This document shows positions 2,673-64,000 of a stretch of 64,000 nucleotides of DNA, one piece after another. The stretch is taken from positions 1,123 to 65,122 of the forward strand of contig DBNT01000114.1 of assembly GCA_002299835.1 (NCBI GenBank), in the 5' to 3' direction. The first letter of the stretch is position 1. Each line of letters opens with the position of its first letter. The DNA is from Nitrospiraceae bacterium UBA665. Its GTDB lineage: Bacteria > Nitrospirota > Thermodesulfovibrionia > Thermodesulfovibrionales > Dissulfurispiraceae. The notes beneath the pieces are model-generated. The model did no database searches, was not told where the DNA came from, and was given only the letters and a program-made list of their open reading frames with translations. Position numbers and translations under genes: made by a program.

Positions 2673-2839
2673 AAAGATGTTGCTCCCTCTACTATAAGGT
2701 CAGTCAAAAAAAACTGGCTGACCTTATTATTTCATTCTTTCTCATAGCTTATTGATTTTTTGCCTTAATTGTATTATACTTTTAGTGTTACGCTGTTAGT
2801 ATTATACACAAGGTGAGAATAAGAAGGAGGTTTAAACAG

Positions 2840-2868
2840 TTGACAATTAGTGTTCAAAAGTATATATT
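2840..2868 (+). promoter_or_regulatory. consensus sigma70 promoter upstream of the recombinase gene
   Basis: TTGACA, 17 nt, TATATT. Confidence 0.55.
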
Positions 2869-2887
2869 TTATCATAAGGTGTTATTG

Positions 2888-3487
2888 ATGCTAATAACTA
2901 TAAAATATATACGTGACTATTATAGTCTAAGCCGGATAAGCCTTATCAATTGGGAAAAGCAGGGATTGCTCAAACCATATTACACACCCGGAGGCCGCAG
3001 GCGTTATAAACGTGAAGACATAGAACACTTGTTGGGCATAAAGAAAGAATCGCCTGTCAAGCCTGCTGTAGTCTGTTACGCCCGTGTATCTACCGCCAAA
3101 CAAAAAGACTATCTCGATAATCAGATGCAGCGATTAAAAAGTTATTGCAAAGCTAAAGGCTATCGGGACTATCACATAATATCTGAGATAGCGTCTGGCG
3201 TCAACGAGAACAGGCGAGAGTTAAGGACGCTGTTGAATATGGCAAAGCGAGGAGAGGTAAGTAAGGTTGTTATTGAGTATGAAGACCGTCTGGCGAGGTT
3301 CGGTTATGAATATCTTAAGGCGTATTTCAATTCCTTTGGCATAGATATAGAGGTTATTAACGGAAATGAACACGAGGACGCTCAAAAAGAGCTTGCCGAA
3401 GACCTTATAGCAATGGTCACATCGTTTGCCGCAAGGATATACGGCAAGCGTGGAGGTCGCAAGATCAAACATGAACAAAAAAACTGA
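2888..3487 (+). CDS. tnpA: IS607-type serine recombinase (MerR-like HTH plus resolvase catalytic domain)
   Basis: N-terminal HTH (YSLSRISLINWEKQGLL). YARVSTAKQ catalytic-serine motif. The start is uncertain between GTG 2813 and ATG 2888. Confidence 0.8.
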   Translation: MLITIKYIRDYYSLSRISLINWEKQGLLKPYYTPGGRRRYKREDIEHLLGIKKESPVKPAVVCYARVSTAKQKDYLDNQMQRLKSYCKAKGYRDYHIISEIASGVNENRRELRTLLNMAKRGEVSKVVIEYEDRLARFGYEYLKAYFNSFGIDIEVINGNEHEDAQKELAEDLIAMVTSFAARIYGKRGGRKIKHEQKN

Positions 3488-5057
3488 CGGGACTATCATT
3501 GCAACTATCACAGGTATAATCAGTCCGCAAAGCGAAAGCGACATTGCCGATATATACGGACTAATGTCTGATTCTTCCTCTGCAAAGAAAATGGCTTTCA
3601 ACAGGATAGTTAAAGACGGCGTTGATGACAGGGGCGCAATAGAGAGATACATCAGACAGCGCATCCCGACTTTTAACACCCGCTATGCAAGAGACGCTAT
3701 AATCGAGGCTCAGGCAATAATCTTATCCCAGAAAGAGCTTCTGCCTATGTATCTTCAGAATACACAAAAGAAACTCAAAAAATCTGTTGCAAAACTTGTA
3801 GATTATGTAACAGAGGATAAAAAACCTAAAACTGACCTTTTAGTAGCTCTAAAGGGATTATGTAACAGAATCGGAAAACTGAAGTCTCGCATTACTGAAC
3901 TTCAATCGCATATTAACAACGGAACTATCCCAAACATTGTGTTTGGCGGAAAGAATAATTTTAAAAAACTACAAAAAGGTCTTATCTCAAGAAAACAGTG
4001 GAAAGATCTAAGAACCAACAGCTTTTACAGTAGAGGGGATGCATCCAAGCAAGGCAATCTTCATACACGTCTGTATTACAACGAAGCTGAAGACTCTTTC
4101 AGGATTAGGCTTTCTATCCCCCAGGATAAAGGCAGATGTAAATATATCTATTGCCCTGTCTCAATAGCCTCGGCTAAAAGGCATAAAAGCAGGCGGGAGA
4201 CACTTATATCGGCTGTGCAAAACAATGCCTCTTACTCAGTGCGAATTATAAGGCGTAATTCAAATATTGAAGCTCATATCACTCTTGATGAGGTTATTTA
4301 CGGCTCCTTCGTTAAGAAAATCCCCGAATCCGTAACCACTATCGCAGGGATAGACCTGAATACAGACAGGCTGGCAGTAACGCTGTCTGATTACAAAGGC
4401 AACTTCATTAGGCATAAAACATTTTATTGCCATGACCTTGAGCATTGCAGGACAGGGCAGAGAGACTTTACGATTAACCATGTCGTGAAGGAGATGTTTG
4501 AATGGCTTACAACTAATCATACAGAGGTTGTTGTTATTGAGCGACTTGATTTCAAGCAGGACATGGACACCAATGCATGGCTTAACCGTTTCAGGTCTAA
4601 CTTCACTTATAGTAAGCTGCATAAGGCTATCACGCGGAAGGCGCTCAGAACAGGTATGTTCATTAAGACCGTTAATCCGACATATACGTCTCAAATAGGA
4701 ACGCTCAAATACGCAGCGCAATACGGCATGGCAAGGCATGAGGCTGCCGCTTATGTAATAGCACGCAGAGGACTCGGATATAACGAGCGTATTCCTAAAA
4801 GGATTATCCAAAATCTGCCAGACATTATCAGTACTCTGATCCAGAAAGCTTCAGGCGCTAAGGAAGCAGCCAAAAAAAAGCTCACGGCTCATATTAAAGT
4901 CTTAAAACAGTGGAAAGCTTACTCTCCGGTAAGCACTATCCATAAGTGGAAGTTGTGGTCTTTGCTGTATCAAAGCCTACCATGCCCTGTGTTTCCTATG
5001 GAAGGAATAGCAGGGGTAAGTGGTCAGGCAGCTCCCCTAACAGGGGCCGGTCCATGA
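3471..5057 (+). CDS. tnpB: TnpB-like protein, atypical C-terminus
   Basis: GIDLN (RuvC-I), VVIERL (RuvC-II) and NPTYTSQ are present. No Cys zinc ribbon, and RHEAAAYVIARRG sits where DxNAAxNI is expected. The last roughly 35 codons are GC-rich and probably read through an RNA. Confidence 0.7.
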   Translation: MNKKTDGTIIATITGIISPQSESDIADIYGLMSDSSSAKKMAFNRIVKDGVDDRGAIERYIRQRIPTFNTRYARDAIIEAQAIILSQKELLPMYLQNTQKKLKKSVAKLVDYVTEDKKPKTDLLVALKGLCNRIGKLKSRITELQSHINNGTIPNIVFGGKNNFKKLQKGLISRKQWKDLRTNSFYSRGDASKQGNLHTRLYYNEAEDSFRIRLSIPQDKGRCKYIYCPVSIASAKRHKSRRETLISAVQNNASYSVRIIRRNSNIEAHITLDEVIYGSFVKKIPESVTTIAGIDLNTDRLAVTLSDYKGNFIRHKTFYCHDLEHCRTGQRDFTINHVVKEMFEWLTTNHTEVVVIERLDFKQDMDTNAWLNRFRSNFTYSKLHKAITRKALRTGMFIKTVNPTYTSQIGTLKYAAQYGMARHEAAAYVIARRGLGYNERIPKRIIQNLPDIISTLIQKASGAKEAAKKKLTAHIKVLKQWKAYSPVSTIHKWKLWSLLYQSLPCPVFPMEGIAGVSGQAAPLTGAGP

Positions 5058-25210: not shown

Positions 25211-26526
25211 ATGACTAAAAATAAGCGAGACAAATTGAGGTCGTTTCTCAATCAGATTATAACAAGTAATATCACAAATCGTTTGTTTGTCATGTCGGTT
25301 AAAAATACCGGACTGACAGCAACAATTATTCCAGTTGAAATTGAAGGCAGAGAATACAGCGTTGATATATTAAAACAGTCAATAATGGTAAACAAAGATA
25401 ATCTCCTAGACGATTTAGATCACTACAAAAACGTTAAGCAGATTCTCTCTAAATCGTTTGCCTATTTAAATAAGCAAACCTCTCCTGCGTGGAATACATT
25501 AGAGAGGGCAACAGAGACAGTGAACTTTCTAAATGAAGTATTTACTGACATCAGCAATGACAATCTATATTGCGTAACAGATATAGACGATGATAGCGAT
25601 GTACGCAGCATGGGAATAGAGTCCTTTTGTGAGGCTGCCTCTATATACCTTGATATTCTGCGATGGGACGGCAGTGATGCAAACGGCGCGTTTGCGATTA
25701 GTCAAAAAATAGAAGACAATTTTGCTATAAAATCAACACGAATAAAAAATATCGCAGGCATTACAAGATATATGGACATTAATAAGTCTGTACTGTCAAC
25801 GCTTAATTATGATATTAAAGAAACACTGAATAAAGCAAGTGAATCAGCAATGGATGCTTATGGGCATACGGTGAATCATATAAAACAGCGGATGTCAGTT
25901 GTTAAGTCCAAGTATACGAAAAATAAGCAGGATGTGCCAAGCGAGATAAAAGACAGTTTTGAAATTAACGGATTAATATGCAATTGGAGTCTCTCGCATT
26001 ATAATTACGAACTTAGTGTGTCTTTCTCGTTCAAGGATGATACACTTGACAGAATTATAAAAGAAAGAGGACTAGAAGGCACTCGCAATAAGATACTGTT
26101 TTTTATTGGCACAAAGAGCAAAGCTAAATGTATCAAACTCTTGCTGAAGAGGCCACTATCTTCCTCTTCTATACATGCAGATACAATTTCAGCGCTGTAT
26201 GCGCTATCATTTGCATCAGGTTCAAAAAACGAGTTCGACATAGACGGGATGAAAGATGTGATTGGCAAAATCTTTACCGCTATACGCGAACAAATAGATT
26301 ATCTAGCAGCTATGTTCCTTGATAATCTCGGCGGCAAGAAGATTACACCTATCAAAAAAAATAAAATAAATAATGCCGCGATAACAAGGACAATGGCAAG
26401 TTTTAGTGAGAGAATCATTGCGCATACGGAAATACATGGCGATACCGAAGAGATTTATGGGTCATCATACAGCCATAAGTTTTTGCTGCCCGAAAACTAT
26501 ATCGTTGGCGGCAATAGAATGTATGT
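25211..26526 (+). CDS. hypothetical protein, exon 1; interrupted by an ORF-less group II intron
   Basis: The ORF continues 34 nt into the intron before a stop. GTGCGAC begins at 26527. Confidence 0.6.
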
Positions 26527-27279
26527 GTGCGACTTGTTGCAGTATAACTTATTGAGATAAGGAAAACTGCTACTATCTATGATAGTGAACTTATTCCTTG
26601 ATAGATGGAATGAAAAGGCTCATGCTGCCTTGAAACATCTACATTAATACTCCACTATGCAATTAGACACTCCAGTGAATAATTGTATAAAGCGTGGTGA
26701 AGTCGGAGACAATAACCTAAACTCCAATGGAGCATGGTTCAATTCTTCGGATGTCTAAAAAATAACTACGGTTAGAATGGCAAAATAGCCTGACGAATCT
26801 GCGAATGTAAGGGTCAATATTCAGATACAAGGAAACTTGTATTAATCCTCTGGATTTTTGTAACGGGATTATTAAAAAATACATGCTTATGAACATCCCT
26901 CTATCAGCCGAGATAGAAACATTACAATGGCTCAAAGCAGAAACCTAAAGTTATATGCATAGATAAAGGAATAGGAACAAGGGAAGGTTGCCACAGTTAC
27001 AACCTCTGGAAAGGGACTGGTTAATCGAAAACGGAAATGGTCTTTTAGTCTTAGACTAATTGACAAGTCTGTATAAGATTATTTAGGCAACTGAAAGCGA
27101 TGGCACGACCGATGAAGTCTCTGTAATGGAGATGGAGGAACAGCCATTAGTCATGTCTTACAAAGTTAAGTCCAATAACGATGTAAACATGATGGAACGC
27201 CGTGTGCGGTGAAAGTCGCATGCACGGTGTGAAGGGAGGGAAAAGCCAGAGATTACATCAAAGGCTTACCTATCCTTAT
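26527..27279 (+). mobile_element. ORF-less group II intron, 753 nt
   Basis: 5' GTGCGAC. Canonical 34-nt domain V at 27197..27230 with a GAAA loop, a 2-nt bulge and a CGC triad. DVI-like hairpin with a bulged A. 3' end ..TTAT. Removal joins the flanking ORFs in frame. Confidence 0.7.
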
Positions 27280-40658: not shown

Positions 40659-40771
40659 GTGCGACAAGAAGTATCAGTAGCCGAGTGAGTAGCAATGCTC
40701 ATAGCCAACCTATCGGCTATTCCCAATATCTTCAGTGCAGAATTGGCAACGGTTCTGTGCTAATCGAAGGT
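40659..40771 (+). pseudogene. 5' stub (~113 nt) of the RT-type group II intron
   Basis: GTGCGACAAGAAGT...CATAGCCAACCTATCGGCTATTCCC...GGTTCTGTGC aligns with 46984..47097. Homology stops at CGAAGGT. Confidence 0.7.
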
Positions 40772-45802: not shown

Positions 45803-46983
45803 ATGACTGAAGTTGTTGATAACACTACGGGTACAGTGCTTGAGGTGGAGCACGGAGACCCAGAATCCATTGCAAGTATTTCCACCTTATTGGGACCCCA
45901 GTATCACATGCAAAGACTAGGTGTAATTCGCCCCGGTATTATGATACTAAAGCAGGGCTGCTCAGAGGCGGACAAAAAAACCTATGAGATAATGCTTTCA
46001 GGCGGGTTTTCATGGGATGAGACAGACAACAAGCTGGGCAAAGACAATCAGGGGAAATCGAAACTCCGTCCTCAAAACGTTGATTATTTTACAGTTCATA
46101 AAAGAGATTGTCCTAATCCGTCTAATTATGATGCGATAATGAAATACGCGGATGCTGACGGCAAGTTGAGGTCGTTTCCCGTGTGGTTTCCGGTGAACGA
46201 ATGGTGGAACATACTGCCCCATTCTCTTCGCTGTTTCGGGACAGGCGGCATAAAATACAAGAGCTCGTTCAGAGGAAAATACTCTGAAGATGGGCGGCTT
46301 ATTGACATGGCCCGTATCTGCGAATTTCCCATCCCTGCCGAGAAGAATAAAAGGGTTTTCGGCGGACGTGAATGGGACAGCAGACCTTGCAATCCGCCTG
46401 ATTGCTCTGAATACCAAAGCGGTGCATGTAACTTCGGCGGTCTTATTCATTTTTGTATACCGGGGACAAGGGGAATAGGCGTTTGGGTGTTGCCCACGAC
46501 GAGTTGGTACTCGCTGGTAAAAATCAAAAGTACGCTTGAGATGGTTGCCAAACTGACTCGCGGCAAGATAGCTGGACTTTTTAACGGGAAGCCTATCTTT
46601 CGTCTTATGAAGGTGCGGGATACAGTGTCTCGTATAGATAAGGCTACCGGCAATGCTGTGAGGATAGACCAATGGTTAATACATCTTGACGCAGACATTG
46701 ATATGACTGATCTTGCCGCTTATTCAGAAGATTGTCAAGTCAAATTAAGAGCATCTAATGCTATGGATGTTCTAACTGGGTCTGCTATTACAGAGGCTGC
46801 AGCGCCGCCTGAGAATGTGGAGTCTCCATTGTCTGAAGACGATGATGTACAGGCAGACGACAATGTTTTTTCCGAAGAATCTGTTATCGCTGCTCCTGAA
46901 ATCGATGAGCCGCAATCTCTTCAGCCTGCAGTAGTTCACGAGGATAAAGGAAAGCCTGCTACGCAGGGGCAAAAAAATGCAAT
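45803..46983 (+). CDS. hypothetical protein, exon 1; interrupted by a group II intron
   Basis: GAGGAG RBS. The ORF runs 34 nt into the intron. GTGCG at 46984. Confidence 0.65.
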
Positions 46984-49230
46984 GTGCGACAAGAAGTCCC
47001 AATTCTTGAGTGAGTAACAATACTCATAGCCAACCTATCGGCTATTCCCCATATCTACAGTGCGGAATTGGTAACGGTTCTGTGCCAAGCGAAGGTAAAA
47101 GTATCCGAATCTGGTAGCCATAATCAGAAGAGGGCAAGGGGAAGACTGACATGGGTAACATATGTGAACTCTCGATAAACTTCGTGATTTTTGAAAGGCT
47201 GGAAAGTGGCTGATAAGCCTTAACCAAAATGGTAAATGGGTAGTTATGGTGCTATTGCATCATCATAACGATAGGTTAAATTCCCATCGGAGAAGAGAGA
47301 GACCCTAAATCAGTCGGAGCTCAATATTGAGGAACTTGGTAACCCTGATGGACTGTCATCCTTGATGACTAAGTAACAGGCAACTGATTATGAATGTCCA
47401 GCAGGCAGAGGATTGAGGAAAAAGCGAATGCCATTCTGTAATGGAATGGATAGGGTGAATAACCTAACCTGAAAGGGTGCTGACTTCCTTATATGGTAGC
47501 AAGATAAAGTAATTCTTTAGGGGGTTACGAAATGATTGCCAAATTAGAGGCAGAAATGCAAATGAAGCGTCATGTCCTAACTGACTGGAACTCCATTGAT
47601 TGGAAGAAAGCAGAAAGGAAAGTGACAAATCTGAGGAAGAGAATTTATCAAGCAACTGAAAGAGGAGAAGTGAAAGAGGTTAAAAACCTACAGAAACTTC
47701 TACTAAATTCTTTTGCCAACAAAGTGTTAGCGATTAAAAGAGTTACACAAATCAATGATGGAAAGAAAACCACAGGGGTTGACGGTGTGGTAATAGAAGA
47801 CCATACGGATAGAGTGAAGATAGCTAATGAGAAGATTAATCTCAAAGGCTACAAACCTTTACCTGTAAGGAGAGTATATATACCAAAGTCAGATAATTCC
47901 AAAAGACCGCTCGGGATTCCAACCATTAAAGACAGGATAATTCAGGCAATTGTAAAAGAAGCGCTTGAACCAGAATGGGAAGCCAGATTTGAGGCAAACT
48001 CATTTGGCTTTAGACCTGGAAGATGCACTCAAGATGCCATAGAAGAAATACACGCTGCGTTAAATAATAGTGCAGTGGGTAGAAACGAGTGGATATTGGA
48101 TGCAGACATCAAAAAGGCTTTTGACACAATTAACCATGAGTTTATCCTAAACCAAATTTGTAACTTCCCAATGAAAGGATTAATTTCAAAATGGCTAAAA
48201 GCAGGGTATCTAGAAACAGGGATAATGCATGAAACACACAATGGAACTCCACAAGGCGGTGTGATAAGTCCCTTATTAGCAAACATCGCTTTAGACGGAC
48301 TACAAAATCAACTTGGAAAAGGATACAGATATGCCCGATATGCTGATGACTTCGTCATCATGGCAAAATCAAAGCAAGCCATTGAAGATATTAAACCAAA
48401 AGTAGAGGAGTGGCTGCAAGCAAGAGGATTAACGCTGAATAATGAGAAGACTAAAATTATACACAGAGATGAGGGATTCAAGTTTCTGGGATTTCATATC
48501 AAAATGTATAACAAAAAACTCATTATAAAGCCTCAAAAGGAAAAGGTTGAAGGTTTATTAGACAAAATTAGGAACTGGTTAGACGACAATAAACAAATAG
48601 AAGCGGAAAAAGTCTCTGAACACCTTAACCCAATCATTAGAGGATGGGCTAACTACTATCGCTTTGTATGTAGTAAAGAAACATTTTCAAAAATCCATTG
48701 GAACATTGGATGGAAGTTATGGAAATGGGCTAAAAGAAGACATCCAAACAAAACCGTATTTTGGGTTCTCAGTAAGTATTATGAGAAAAACAAATATGGC
48801 AAGTTTGATGTCTTTAATGGACTATATAGGATTAATAAAACGCCTATAATCCGCTACATCAAAGTGAAAGGAAAAGCCAGTCCTGACGACCCAAGTTTGA
48901 AAGAATATTGGGAAGACAGGAAAAACAGAATCAGCAAAACCTATTATGCAAAAGGTAGTAAACTCTACAAAGTTGCGGAAGAACAAGAATGGAAGTGTAA
49001 TTCTTGCAGAGCAATGCTAATGAATGGTGAAAAGATACATATACATCATAAAGATGACAATCATCAGAATGATGATATATCAAATCTGGAAATCATACAT
49101 GAGCATTGTCATCATCAAAAACACTCAAAGGCAAGGAAAGTTGCGAAAGCTGCTTGAGCCGTGTGAAGGGAAACTTTCACGCACGGTTCTTAGGGGAGGG
49201 GATGACAGCGATGTTGTCTCCTTACCCGAC
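46984..49230 (+). mobile_element. complete group II intron with an RT/maturase/HNH ORF
   Basis: 5' GTGCGAC. Domain V GAGCCGTGTGAAGGGAAACTTTCACGCACGGTTC at 49156..49189. DVI with a bulged A. The 3' end ..CCCGAC is shared with the relic copy and diverges immediately after. Confidence 0.85.
47532..49157 (+). CDS. group II intron reverse transcriptase/maturase with a C-terminal HNH endonuclease domain
   Basis: RT motifs including YARYADDFVIM. Maturase X region. HIHHKDDNHQNDDISNLEIIHEHCH HNH motif. Confidence 0.9.
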   Translation: MIAKLEAEMQMKRHVLTDWNSIDWKKAERKVTNLRKRIYQATERGEVKEVKNLQKLLLNSFANKVLAIKRVTQINDGKKTTGVDGVVIEDHTDRVKIANEKINLKGYKPLPVRRVYIPKSDNSKRPLGIPTIKDRIIQAIVKEALEPEWEARFEANSFGFRPGRCTQDAIEEIHAALNNSAVGRNEWILDADIKKAFDTINHEFILNQICNFPMKGLISKWLKAGYLETGIMHETHNGTPQGGVISPLLANIALDGLQNQLGKGYRYARYADDFVIMAKSKQAIEDIKPKVEEWLQARGLTLNNEKTKIIHRDEGFKFLGFHIKMYNKKLIIKPQKEKVEGLLDKIRNWLDDNKQIEAEKVSEHLNPIIRGWANYYRFVCSKETFSKIHWNIGWKLWKWAKRRHPNKTVFWVLSKYYEKNKYGKFDVFNGLYRINKTPIIRYIKVKGKASPDDPSLKEYWEDRKNRISKTYYAKGSKLYKVAEEQEWKCNSCRAMLMNGEKIHIHHKDDNHQNDDISNLEIIHEHCHHQKHSKARKVAKAA

Positions 49231-53626: not shown

Positions 53627-53980
53627 ATGTCAGCAAAAAATATTAATAAATGGGTTGGTTACCATTTTGAAAGTTCTTGTTATCTAACTCCCGAATTTGC
53701 GGAGTTCGCTAAACAAGTAAGTTCTTGCCTTAAAAAGATCGAGGGCTACGAGTTGGTTGATTTTCTTCGCGGGCACTTTTATTTCAGCGCTTTTCTGAAA
53801 AACATTGAAACAGGCAAGCTGGTCTATATTTCTTGCTTTGATGTCCGCCACTTCCCTGATCGGTGGTATTACGGTTTGCTTATCAGAACAGCAAGTCATA
53901 AAAAAGATTTCACTGGCGGCTCTAACAACTTCATTAAGTTTACAAAAATCAAAGAAATGGCAAGCCAGCTAACGCAGTAA
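53627..53980 (+). CDS. hypothetical protein
   Basis: TGGAGG RBS before ATG 53627. Confidence 0.55.
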   Translation: MSAKNINKWVGYHFESSCYLTPEFAEFAKQVSSCLKKIEGYELVDFLRGHFYFSAFLKNIETGKLVYISCFDVRHFPDRWYYGLLIRTASHKKDFTGGSNNFIKFTKIKEMASQLTQ

Positions 53981-53990
53981 TAAAACACTA

Positions 53991-54021
53991 AAGCACAGGC
54001 TATGCGCCTGTGCTTTTTTTT
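53991..54021 (+). terminator. rho-independent terminator
   Basis: AAGCACAGGC-tatgc-GCCTGTGCTT followed by T8. Confidence 0.75.
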
Positions 54022-54029
54022 AAAAAAAG

Positions 54030-54680
54030 ACGTCCGTGCCAAGCGATGATAAATGTAACAAATCTGAGAGCCATAACTCGGAAGAGTGCTATGGGAAGAC
54101 TGACATGGGCAACAAATGTGAACTCTCGATAAACTTCGTTAACCCAGAAAGGCTAAAATGGCTGATAAGCCTTAACCAAAAATGGTAAGTGGGTAGTTAT
54201 AACGCTTATATTTCGTTATAACGATAGGTTACATCCCCATCCACTCCATTACAGAATGGCATTCGCTTTTTCCTCAATCCTCTGCTTGCTGGACTTTTGT
54301 AGTCAGTTGCCTGCTATTTAGTCATCACATAAGTATGACAGTTCATTAGGTTTATCATGTTCTTTAATGTTGAGATGCGACTGATTTAGGGTCTCTCTAT
54401 TCTCCGATAGGGTGAATGCCTAATCCGAAAGGATGCTGACTTCCTCGTGGTAACACGATAAAGTAATTTATCAGGAGATAGTGAAATGAACGCTGGATTG
54501 AAGGCAGAAATGTCAAAAAGGTTTCATATTCTTTCTGATTGGAGATCCATTGATTGGAAGAAAATCGAAAGAAGAGTGAAAAACCTGAGAAAGAGAAAGC
54601 TGCTTGAGCCGTATGAAGGGAAACTTTCACGTACGGTTCTTAGGGGAGGGGATGACAGTGATGTTATCTCCTTACCCGAC
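54030..54680 (+). pseudogene. 5'-truncated, RT-ORF-deleted group II intron relic with an internal ~170-bp inversion
   Basis: Aligns with 47078..49230 except for a clean deletion of the RT ORF. Segment 54242..54415 is the reverse complement of 47288..47449. Domain V is intact at 54606..54639. Confidence 0.8.
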
Positions 54681-54774
54681 GTATTAACCTTGAAAATTTC
54701 TGCTACTTAAACCTTAGTAAGTCGGTAAGGTCAAGACTTGCAGAGGTGGCAGCGGAACTATTGTAGGTGGCGAA

Positions 54775-54927
54775 ATGGACATTTTTAACTTTTTCAGAAA
54801 GATGCGATACTGCGAGATATGCAGCAGGGAAATGGGAATGGTGTCTTTACTTGAGTATGAGGCGAGACATAGGCATTGCGAATTTTGCATATGCAGTAAA
54901 TGCGATTCGTATATGTTAGGTATGTGA
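54775..54927 (+). CDS. hypothetical Cys-rich 50-aa protein
   Basis: AGGTGG RBS. CEIC...CEFCICSKC. Confidence 0.4.
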   Translation: MDIFNFFRKMRYCEICSREMGMVSLLEYEARHRHCEFCICSKCDSYMLGM

Positions 54928-63172: not shown

Positions 63173-64000
63173 GTTTCAATCCTTGTTTTATTGGAAGTAG
63201 CTTTCAGACAGAAAGAACATGAAAAAGGCAGAAATGATAACAAAATGTTTCAATCCTTGTTTTATTGGAAGTAGCTTTCAGACCTTTGCCTTGTAATCGC
63301 CTGCGCTTGTCCTAACGTGATGTTTCAATCCTTGTTTTATTGGAAGTAGCTTTCAGACCGAAAGAAATGCAGAAAATGGAAAAAGATATAGTTCAGTTTC
63401 AATCCTTGTTTTATTGGAAGTAGCTTTCAGACCTGCAAGGTTAAACATTTTAGATAGCATTCTGATAGTGTTTCAATCCTTGTTTTATTGGAAGTAGCTT
63501 TCAGACTCTCCTTTTTCTCAGCGATGTGATCGGTATATCTGGTTTCAATCCTTGTTTTATTGGAAGTAGCTTTCAGACAAAATAGCCAAAAGTCCGGAAA
63601 GTTTCGGTTTTACTCGTTTCAATCCTTGTTTTATTGGAAGTAGCTTTCAGACAAAAAGACGCAGTAGGACATATCCTTATCTCGAAAGAGTTTCAATCCT
63701 TGTTTTATTGGAAGTAGCTTTCAGACCTCTAACAAAATTCGGCTTGGTGCGGACTTAGATATGTTTCAATCCTTGTTTTATTGGAAGTAGCTTTCAGACG
63801 TCACGATAGTAGCAATCGTCTATGGCGAGATATCGTAAGTTTCAATCCTTGTTTTATTGGAAGTAGCTTTCAGACGAGACAAGATACTCCAAGCCAGTGA
63901 GACAGTCGATATGTTTCAATCCTTGTTTTATTGGAAGTAGCTTTCAGACAACAAGATAACAGCTATACTCAAGCACATGATCAGGTTTCAATCCTTGTTT
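63173..64000. CRISPR. CRISPR array: 11 full repeats plus 1 truncated by the window edge, 37-nt repeats, 11 spacers of 35-39 nt
   Basis: Invariant repeat GTTTCAATCCTTGTTTTATTGGAAGTAGCTTTCAGAC at 63173, 63247, 63322, 63396, 63470, 63542, 63616, 63690, 63763, 63839, 63913 and 63985. All spacers are unique. Confidence 0.95.

Follow-up and report, generated by a model that had tools for sequence, protein, structure and literature searches.

Organization of the locus

The window, by which we mean the whole 64,000-nucleotide stretch of DNA that was analysed, contains a full-length group II intron of 2247 nt (46984–49230, + strand) and, about 5 kb downstream, a 648-nt homologue of this intron (54033–54680), referred to here as the relic. 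The genome holds one full-length copy, one relic and one 113-nt stub of this intron family, the relic thus being a single-copy element. A gene for a 125-aa protein lies upstream of the relic; no record of this protein was found in a database look-up. A terminator scan places the intrinsic terminator of this gene, an 11-bp stem followed by a T run, at 53990–54022 on the + strand. The relic starts approximately 10 nt 3′ of this terminator, which is not itself intron sequence.

The DNA around the locus has the appearance of a large mobile element, phage-like or of another kind; it carries a primase gene (54961), a Gp3-like gene and a CRISPR array without cas genes. The array occupies 63173–63949 on the − strand, at the end of the window, and was matched by RF01320 (CRISPR-DR7), with 11 repeats detected. 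A second, unrelated group II intron is located at 26527–27279 (+ strand); it has no room for an IEP and resembles an intron without an ORF, about 750 nt in length. It matches RF02004 (D1D4-5) with 101 bits at 26585–26761 and the DV/DVI model with 61.9 bits at 27195–27279, and a GTGCGAC motif occurs near 26529, inside the 3′ end of a 449-aa ORF (25211–26560).

The full-length resident intron

The full-length intron interrupts the Gp3-like gene, which starts at 45803; when position 46983 is joined to 49231, the reading frame stays open to 49357. Its IEP is encoded at 47532–49157 and contains RVT_N, RVT_1 and GIIM domains and an HNH-like C-terminus. Among solved structures this protein is closest to the T.el4h IIB maturase (6ME0, E value of 5.6e-125), and its nearest database relatives are metagenome proteins of 66–73% identity, some of them labelled Syntrophaceae or Deltaproteobacteria. 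Rfam detects domains V and VI at 49154–49230 (67.1 bits) and a domain I motif, RF02012, that is found in the full-length copy only. The RF02012 match (47026–47135, + strand) covers intron nucleotides ∼43–152, including two hairpins.

Placement of the 5′ end was based on an alignment of seven full-length relatives retrieved by means of the IEP. Homology, including a covarying hairpin, extends upstream to a conserved GTGCGACAAGAAGTC in the seven full-length copies; three of the copies have the variant GTGTGACATGAAGTC or a form without the first two bases. The resident intron therefore begins with GTGCGACAAG at 46984 and not with GTGCG at 47060. Two candidates farther downstream, GTGCG at 47060 and GTGCC at 47082, were ruled out by this alignment; the motif at 47060 imitates a 5′ splice site and reads GTTCA or GTGCA in the relatives, so that it is not conserved.

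The third member of the family, the stub at 40659–40771 (+ strand), corresponds to intron nucleotides 1–113, is 87% identical to the full-length copy and lies directly 3′ of a small ORF. Its breakpoint at nucleotide 113 is near the nucleotide (∼96) at which the homology of the relic begins. The stub and the relic are unlikely to be the halves of one copy, as only 13 of the 18 nucleotides in their overlap are identical.

For comparison with the relic, ten full-length relatives were available, all of them from other genomes or from metagenomes (L012, L013, L014, L015, L016, L017, L018a, L018b, L022 and L023). The contig that carries L018 (JGI 3300025516) holds two related full-length introns in tandem, at 16–2270 and 2705–3700, about 0.4 kb apart. 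On the L015 contig (ENA ERZ25039515; 200–1062), homology to the family breaks off after the first DI hairpin and resumes at nucleotide ∼118. The intervening stretch has a DVI-like end, ...CCTCCCTACCCGAT, and the IEP end and DV of another intron lie just upstream (201–284); this may be a nested or tandem arrangement of introns.

Anatomy of the relic

A BLAST search of the window with positions 53950–54800 as the query returned four matches to the full-length intron. Positions 54033–54241 correspond to 47079–47288 on the + strand (82% identity, E value of 2e-51), 54225–54411 to the reverse complement of 47283–47466 (85%, E value of 3e-54), 54406–54597 to 47449–47643 on the + strand (75%) and 54595–54680 to 49145–49230 on the + strand (95%); the presence of an inversion is far beyond chance. 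The first-pass annotation had described this element as an intron relic with a deleted ORF and an internal inversion, and the BLAST matches and a base-level alignment bear this description out. It had made no mention of a truncation at the 5′ end.

The collinear left part (54033–54241, + strand) comprises intron nucleotides 96–305, from the middle of domain I. Nucleotides 1 to ∼95, including the 5′ splice site GUGCG, are absent, and the GUGYG motif and the 5′ strand of DI that would be expected there are replaced by the terminator and unrelated sequence. The 5′ truncation alone rules out splicing in cis.

The inverted segment follows at 54242–54405, with its native sense on the − strand according to the alignment, the consensus structure and the covariance model described below. 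At base level, its breakpoints are 54241|54242 and 54405|54406, equivalent to 47288|47289 and 47448|47449 in the full-length copy, and it measures 164 nt, compared with 160 nt (47289–47448) in that copy. The inversion had originally been drawn from 54242 to 54415; its existence and its start stand, and its end is moved back by about 10 nt. In intron coordinates the pieces abut exactly (...305 | 465...306 | 466...), and the inversion is conservative, with neither gap nor overlap.

In the right-hand collinear part (54406–54485, + strand), the 3′ half of DIII is followed by the 5′ side of DIV, which extends to what was once the start codon of the IEP. Next come the first 37 codons of the former IEP gene (54486–54597, + strand), which end at a deletion junction marked by GAA (54595–54597). 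The deletion has removed 47644–49144 (1501 nt), and the GAA triplet is common to both sides of the junction. Beyond it, at 54598–54680 on the + strand, are the rest of the last four IEP codons, DV (54606–54639) and DVI with its bulged A, as identified with RF00029; the intron 3′ end is retained as ...CCUUACCCGAC at 54680. These matches and alignments demonstrate the anatomy of the element.

As the first-pass annotation had stated, the deletion leaves a fusion ORF of 74 aa at 54486–54710 (+ strand); codon 37/38 is joined to the last four codons. The frame is shifted, and the ORF runs through DV and DVI into the flank as a by-product of the deletion. Gene callers have annotated a gene without a family at this position in other assemblies. 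The only trace of an IEP domain is an RVT_N match below threshold at positions 1–19; with 37 N-terminal and four C-terminal codons left, and these out of frame, neither the reverse-transcriptase and maturase (X) domains of a mobile retroelement nor the En domain typical of this lineage is encoded.

Native orientation and damage to the fold

All ten full-length relatives are collinear with the resident copy and have the opposite strand to that of the middle segment of the relic. The first-pass annotation had proposed folding both orientations against a group II covariance model, and the window was searched with a model of DII–DIII (R1) built from eight sequences, all from outside the source genome. 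The model gave 156.4 bits for the full-length copy on the + strand and 85.7 bits for the relic on the − strand (54355–54197); on the + strand of the relic it scored only 17.5 bits, from the 3′ part of DIII. The orientation in the full-length copy is thus the native one. As DII and the 5′ part of DIII of the relic lie on the minus strand and all of the relatives are arranged as in the resident copy, the comparison establishes the polarity of the event: the alignments and the model show the inversion to be derived in the relic.

An RNAalifold consensus of seven full-length copies contains 134 base pairs, 64 of which have compensatory changes. In its columns, DI spans 7–409 and DII 415–482, followed by J2/3 and by DIII at 494–583. 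Of the two breakpoints, the left lies within a helix of DI (columns 359|360) and the right within a hairpin of DIII (columns 528|529). The inverted block (columns 360–528) therefore takes with it the 3′ strands of long-range DI helices, J1/2, the whole of DII, J2/3 and the 5′ part of DIII. In the helices that pair inverted with collinear parts (19 evaluable pairs in DI and seven in DIII), one strand is now reverse-complemented, and DII and 5′ DIII are opposite in strand to DV, so that no collinear DI–DIII is available for folding. The ribozyme fold of the relic is predicted to be destroyed, and a transcript would be unable to form the catalytic core. The earlier expectation that the inversion would disrupt DI–DIII folding in one of the two copies is upheld, and the relatives' orientation and the covariance model identify that copy as the relic.

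An Rfam search of the window at the gathering score gave no RF02012 match in the relic, because about half of the region covered by this model is missing from it. By descent, the relic belongs to the RF02012-type IIB/CL lineage: BLAST connects it to the full-length copy and to the ten relatives, and a tree places it with the full-length copy and L014.

Divergence and timing of the lesions

The relic and the full-length copy are 84% identical (∼16% divergence). At this distance, the relic is not a recent derivative of the resident copy. The three segments of the relic are all nearest to the full-length copy (84, 88 and 80% identity), followed by L014; their common nearest relative points to a single lineage in which the segment was inverted in place, and not to a mosaic.

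For comparison with the family, the segment was re-inverted in silico and the relic was then added to the alignment. In this form it retains 85 of the 92 evaluable consensus pairs, including 18 of the 19 that bridge collinear and inverted parts. Relative to the full-length copy it has five further compensatory double changes and eight wobble changes. Of the substitutions that fall in paired columns, about two thirds are structure-compatible; random substitution would give, on a rough estimate, about one in six. These retained and compensated pairs place the accrual of most of the divergence in a functional, uninverted ancestor, before decay. It was thus on this ancestor that selection acted, the three lesions having come later. 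Broken pairs are modestly commoner in the relic (7/92) than in the functional copies (16/664; Fisher p = 0.015), and its branch in the tree is longer; some decay after the element was inactivated would account for both observations.

Domain V and the 3′ end

RF00029 recognizes the 3′ end of the relic (54604–54680) with 69.1 bits, above the gathering score of 40. The 34-nt DV helix with its AGC triad and 2-nt bulge is present, as are the bulged A of DVI and the AY end, and all pairs are canonical. The Rfam alignments confirm the earlier report of a double change in DV that preserves the helix: the pair G49163–C49182 of the full-length copy is A54613–U54632 in the relic. Two more differences occur within the 3′ 86 nt: in one, a GNRA loop is exchanged for another GNRA loop, and in the other, U·G in DVI becomes U–A. 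All four differences between the relic and the full-length copy in DV/DVI are structure-neutral.

The double change had been taken as a sign that the 3′ core of the relic remained under selection. This reading is not supported by the family, since the A–U pair is also present in the full-length L015a and L015b, and compensatory changes occur likewise in DI–DIV of the re-inverted relic, including pairs that are now split by the inversion. The pair is G–C in the full-length resident copy and in L012, L013, L014, L016, L017 and L018, and A–U is the Rfam consensus. The A–U state of the relic is ordinary covariation within the family that was inherited by the relic, and is no evidence that its 3′ core is now under selection. 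The 95% identity in DV/DVI is likewise found throughout the family; between the full-length copy and L014, for example, identity is 96% in this region and about 80% in the 5′ part.

The well preserved 3′ end bears on whether the relic, or its DV–DVI end, might still work, either as an ORF-less intron spliced in trans with the resident IEP or as a trans-acting catalytic fragment. Besides its score above the Rfam threshold and the structure-preserving nature of all four differences, a gene for a related IEP lies at a distance of 5 kb, and PMC4424553 describes ORF-less bacterial introns as normally residing with related IEP-encoding copies. We nevertheless consider such activity very unlikely. 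The relic has neither a 5′ splice site nor the first 95 nt, DI is unable to close, and the inversion has moved DII, J2/3 and the 5′ part of DIII to the opposite strand. The high DV/DVI identity is a property of the family as a whole. The stub at 40659–40771, with its poorly matching overlap, does not supply the missing half and, even if it did, the inversion would remain.

Pairing in the inverted domain II

The DII hairpin of the relic (54286–54353) is unusual in that four pairs that are A·C in the native sense become G·U on the + strand, and 17 of 17 pairs are canonical in the sequence as it stands. The relic is the only member of the family in which DII pairs better as the reverse complement (21/23) than in the native sense (19/23). 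Together with the absence of disruptive changes in DV/DVI, this could be taken to mean that the flipped hairpin went on evolving, in its new orientation, under selection for pairing and that the transcript of the relic was co-opted as a structured RNA, for example as a leader preceding the primase gene (54961). A test in DII for a strand-specific mutation bias or for selection after the inversion compared four events with one (p ∼0.19). Neither this pattern nor that in DV/DVI is significant, and we regard co-option as highly improbable. The dead-remnant interpretation, with selection confined to the functional ancestor, is preferred.

Junctions of the inversion

The inversion junctions coincide with CCCATC in DI and GATAGGG in DIII, which form a short imperfect inverted repeat, and TAGGTTA/TAACCTA lies directly outside it. 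Being short and gapped, this repeat was not reported by a repeat search with a seed of 6 and a length of at least 10; a 7-mer inverted repeat within ∼320 nt corresponds to chance expectation. The inversion may have been mediated by this repeat or by microhomology. We also considered the block to be a stem-closed domain that had flipped about its own helix arms, an idea that was rejected because, in the covariation-supported consensus, CCCAUC pairs within DI whereas GAUAGGG is located in DIII, so that the two are not partners.

A conservative inversion, in which no bases were gained or lost, with a short inverted repeat at its bounds is also what would be seen if 54242–54405 were a programmed switch, inverted back and forth by recombination, whether site-specific or mediated by repeats. 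However, no recombinase or invertase domain was detected in the neighbouring ORFs, and the junction repeat is only ∼6–7 nt long and imperfect. Two other assemblies, found by tracing the exact primase protein that adjoins the relic, have the same orientation as the window: L019, a 174-kb NCBI MAG contig, has the full inverted arrangement (one mismatch in 6365 nt), and L020, a Logan contig from another run, is 100% identical from 54256 onward and includes the right junction. In either orientation, moreover, the element would still be without a 5′ splice site and an IEP. A switch is very unlikely, although a minority population may have the segment in the native orientation.

The same two contigs bear on whether the inversion arose from an assembler mixing two intron copies. 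The copies do have in common an exact reverse-complement stretch of about 38–40 nt (54248–54285 versus 47405–47442), and the Logan contig breaks at 54256, inside this stretch, which would explain the break. On the other hand, the inverted segment is 15% diverged from the full-length copy throughout and thus was not built from reads of that copy, and the sequence in which the two junctions lie is specific to the relic. The agreement of two assemblies, the independently assembled 174-kb contig for the whole arrangement and the Logan contig for the right junction only, argues against an assembly error, which appears exceedingly improbable on this sequence evidence.

Exact-pattern scans gave no match to the left inversion junction in viral contigs and none to the deletion junction in JGI metagenome contigs, and no further occurrence of the relic, in either orientation, was found in the viral or JGI metagenome contigs scanned. 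The motif of the intron family likewise had no match in the viral contigs scanned, and a phage collection yielded matches to the relic at the level of DV only.

As several copies and fragments of the family lie within 14 kb, the relic might be thought a mosaic, made up of intron fragments that were inserted separately, one of them in the opposite orientation. This is scarcely credible: in intron coordinates the three pieces adjoin without gap or overlap, their nearest relative is the same and their divergence similar, and nearly all of their bridging pairs are restored on re-inversion.

Comparison with known systems

The closest counterparts of the relic are the truncated or inactivated group II copies of bacteria, examples being the remnants of RmInt1 in Sinorhizobium and the fragments listed in surveys of bacterial introns. 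Like these, it is non-functional and 5′-truncated with an exact 3′ end, and it occupies an intergenic site in a region rich in mobile elements, adjoining related full-length copies. It differs from them in the additional conservative internal inversion from DI to DIII. No description of such an inversion in an intron remnant was found in a limited, non-systematic check of the literature.

With ORF-less introns that use an IEP in trans, such as the cyanobacterial copies, the relic has in common the deletion of the IEP gene within DIV, an intact DV/DVI and a related IEP in the genome. Such introns, however, keep both ends and a foldable DI–DIII and are usually multi-copy, whereas the relic is without a 5′ end, is inverted with a broken fold and is single-copy. 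According to PMC4424553, ORF-less copies are rare and reside together with related copies that encode an IEP.

The T.el4h-type IIB (chloroplast-like) introns have RT-X-En proteins and are described by RF02012 (group-II-D1D4-7) and RF00029; among solved structures, the resident IEP is nearest to the T.el4h maturase, and the 5′ part of DI of the resident intron matches RF02012. The relic is 84% identical to this copy, yet itself falls below the RF02012 threshold.

Twin priming of LINE-1 elements produces 5′-inverted insertions, and organelle DNA contains small inversions bounded by short inverted repeats. The combination of 5′ truncation and inversion in the former, and the short inverted repeats in the latter, resemble the relic as a mechanistic analogy only. 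In twin priming, the inverted part forms the 5′ end and there is only one inversion junction, whereas the block in the relic is internal and has two junctions.

Conclusions

Very probably the relic is dead: it is what is left of a mobile group II intron (IIB/chloroplast-like type, sub-lineage of the resident copy), with three lesions that post-date a functional ancestor. Devoid of a catalytic core, a 5′ splice site and an encoded protein, it is predicted to have no function. We envisage that a normal, uninverted intron diverged by ∼16% from the resident lineage while both were under selection for the fold. The first ∼95 nt would have been lost through incomplete reverse transcription at insertion or by a later deletion. 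Another lesion is the deletion of 1501 nt of the RT/maturase gene between two GAA triplets, and a further one the conservative inversion of 160–164 bp with its junctions at a short imperfect inverted repeat. For the molecular route to each lesion we infer recombination at microhomology, either illegitimate or by template switching; the sequence in which the three arose is likewise conjectural.

For annotation, the 74-aa ORF at 54486–54710 should be treated as a pseudogene fragment. Beyond this, the importance of the relic is small, as it is an ordinary decayed copy of a retroelement; in bacteria, according to PMC4424553, the majority of group II intron copies are truncated or inactivated. Compensatory differences between paralogues that were inherited from functional ancestors may be misread as selection on a dead copy. 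The relic provides a clean example of the decay of a bacterial or phage-borne intron, which here combines truncation at the 5′ end with a microhomology-associated deletion and an inversion located at a short inverted repeat.
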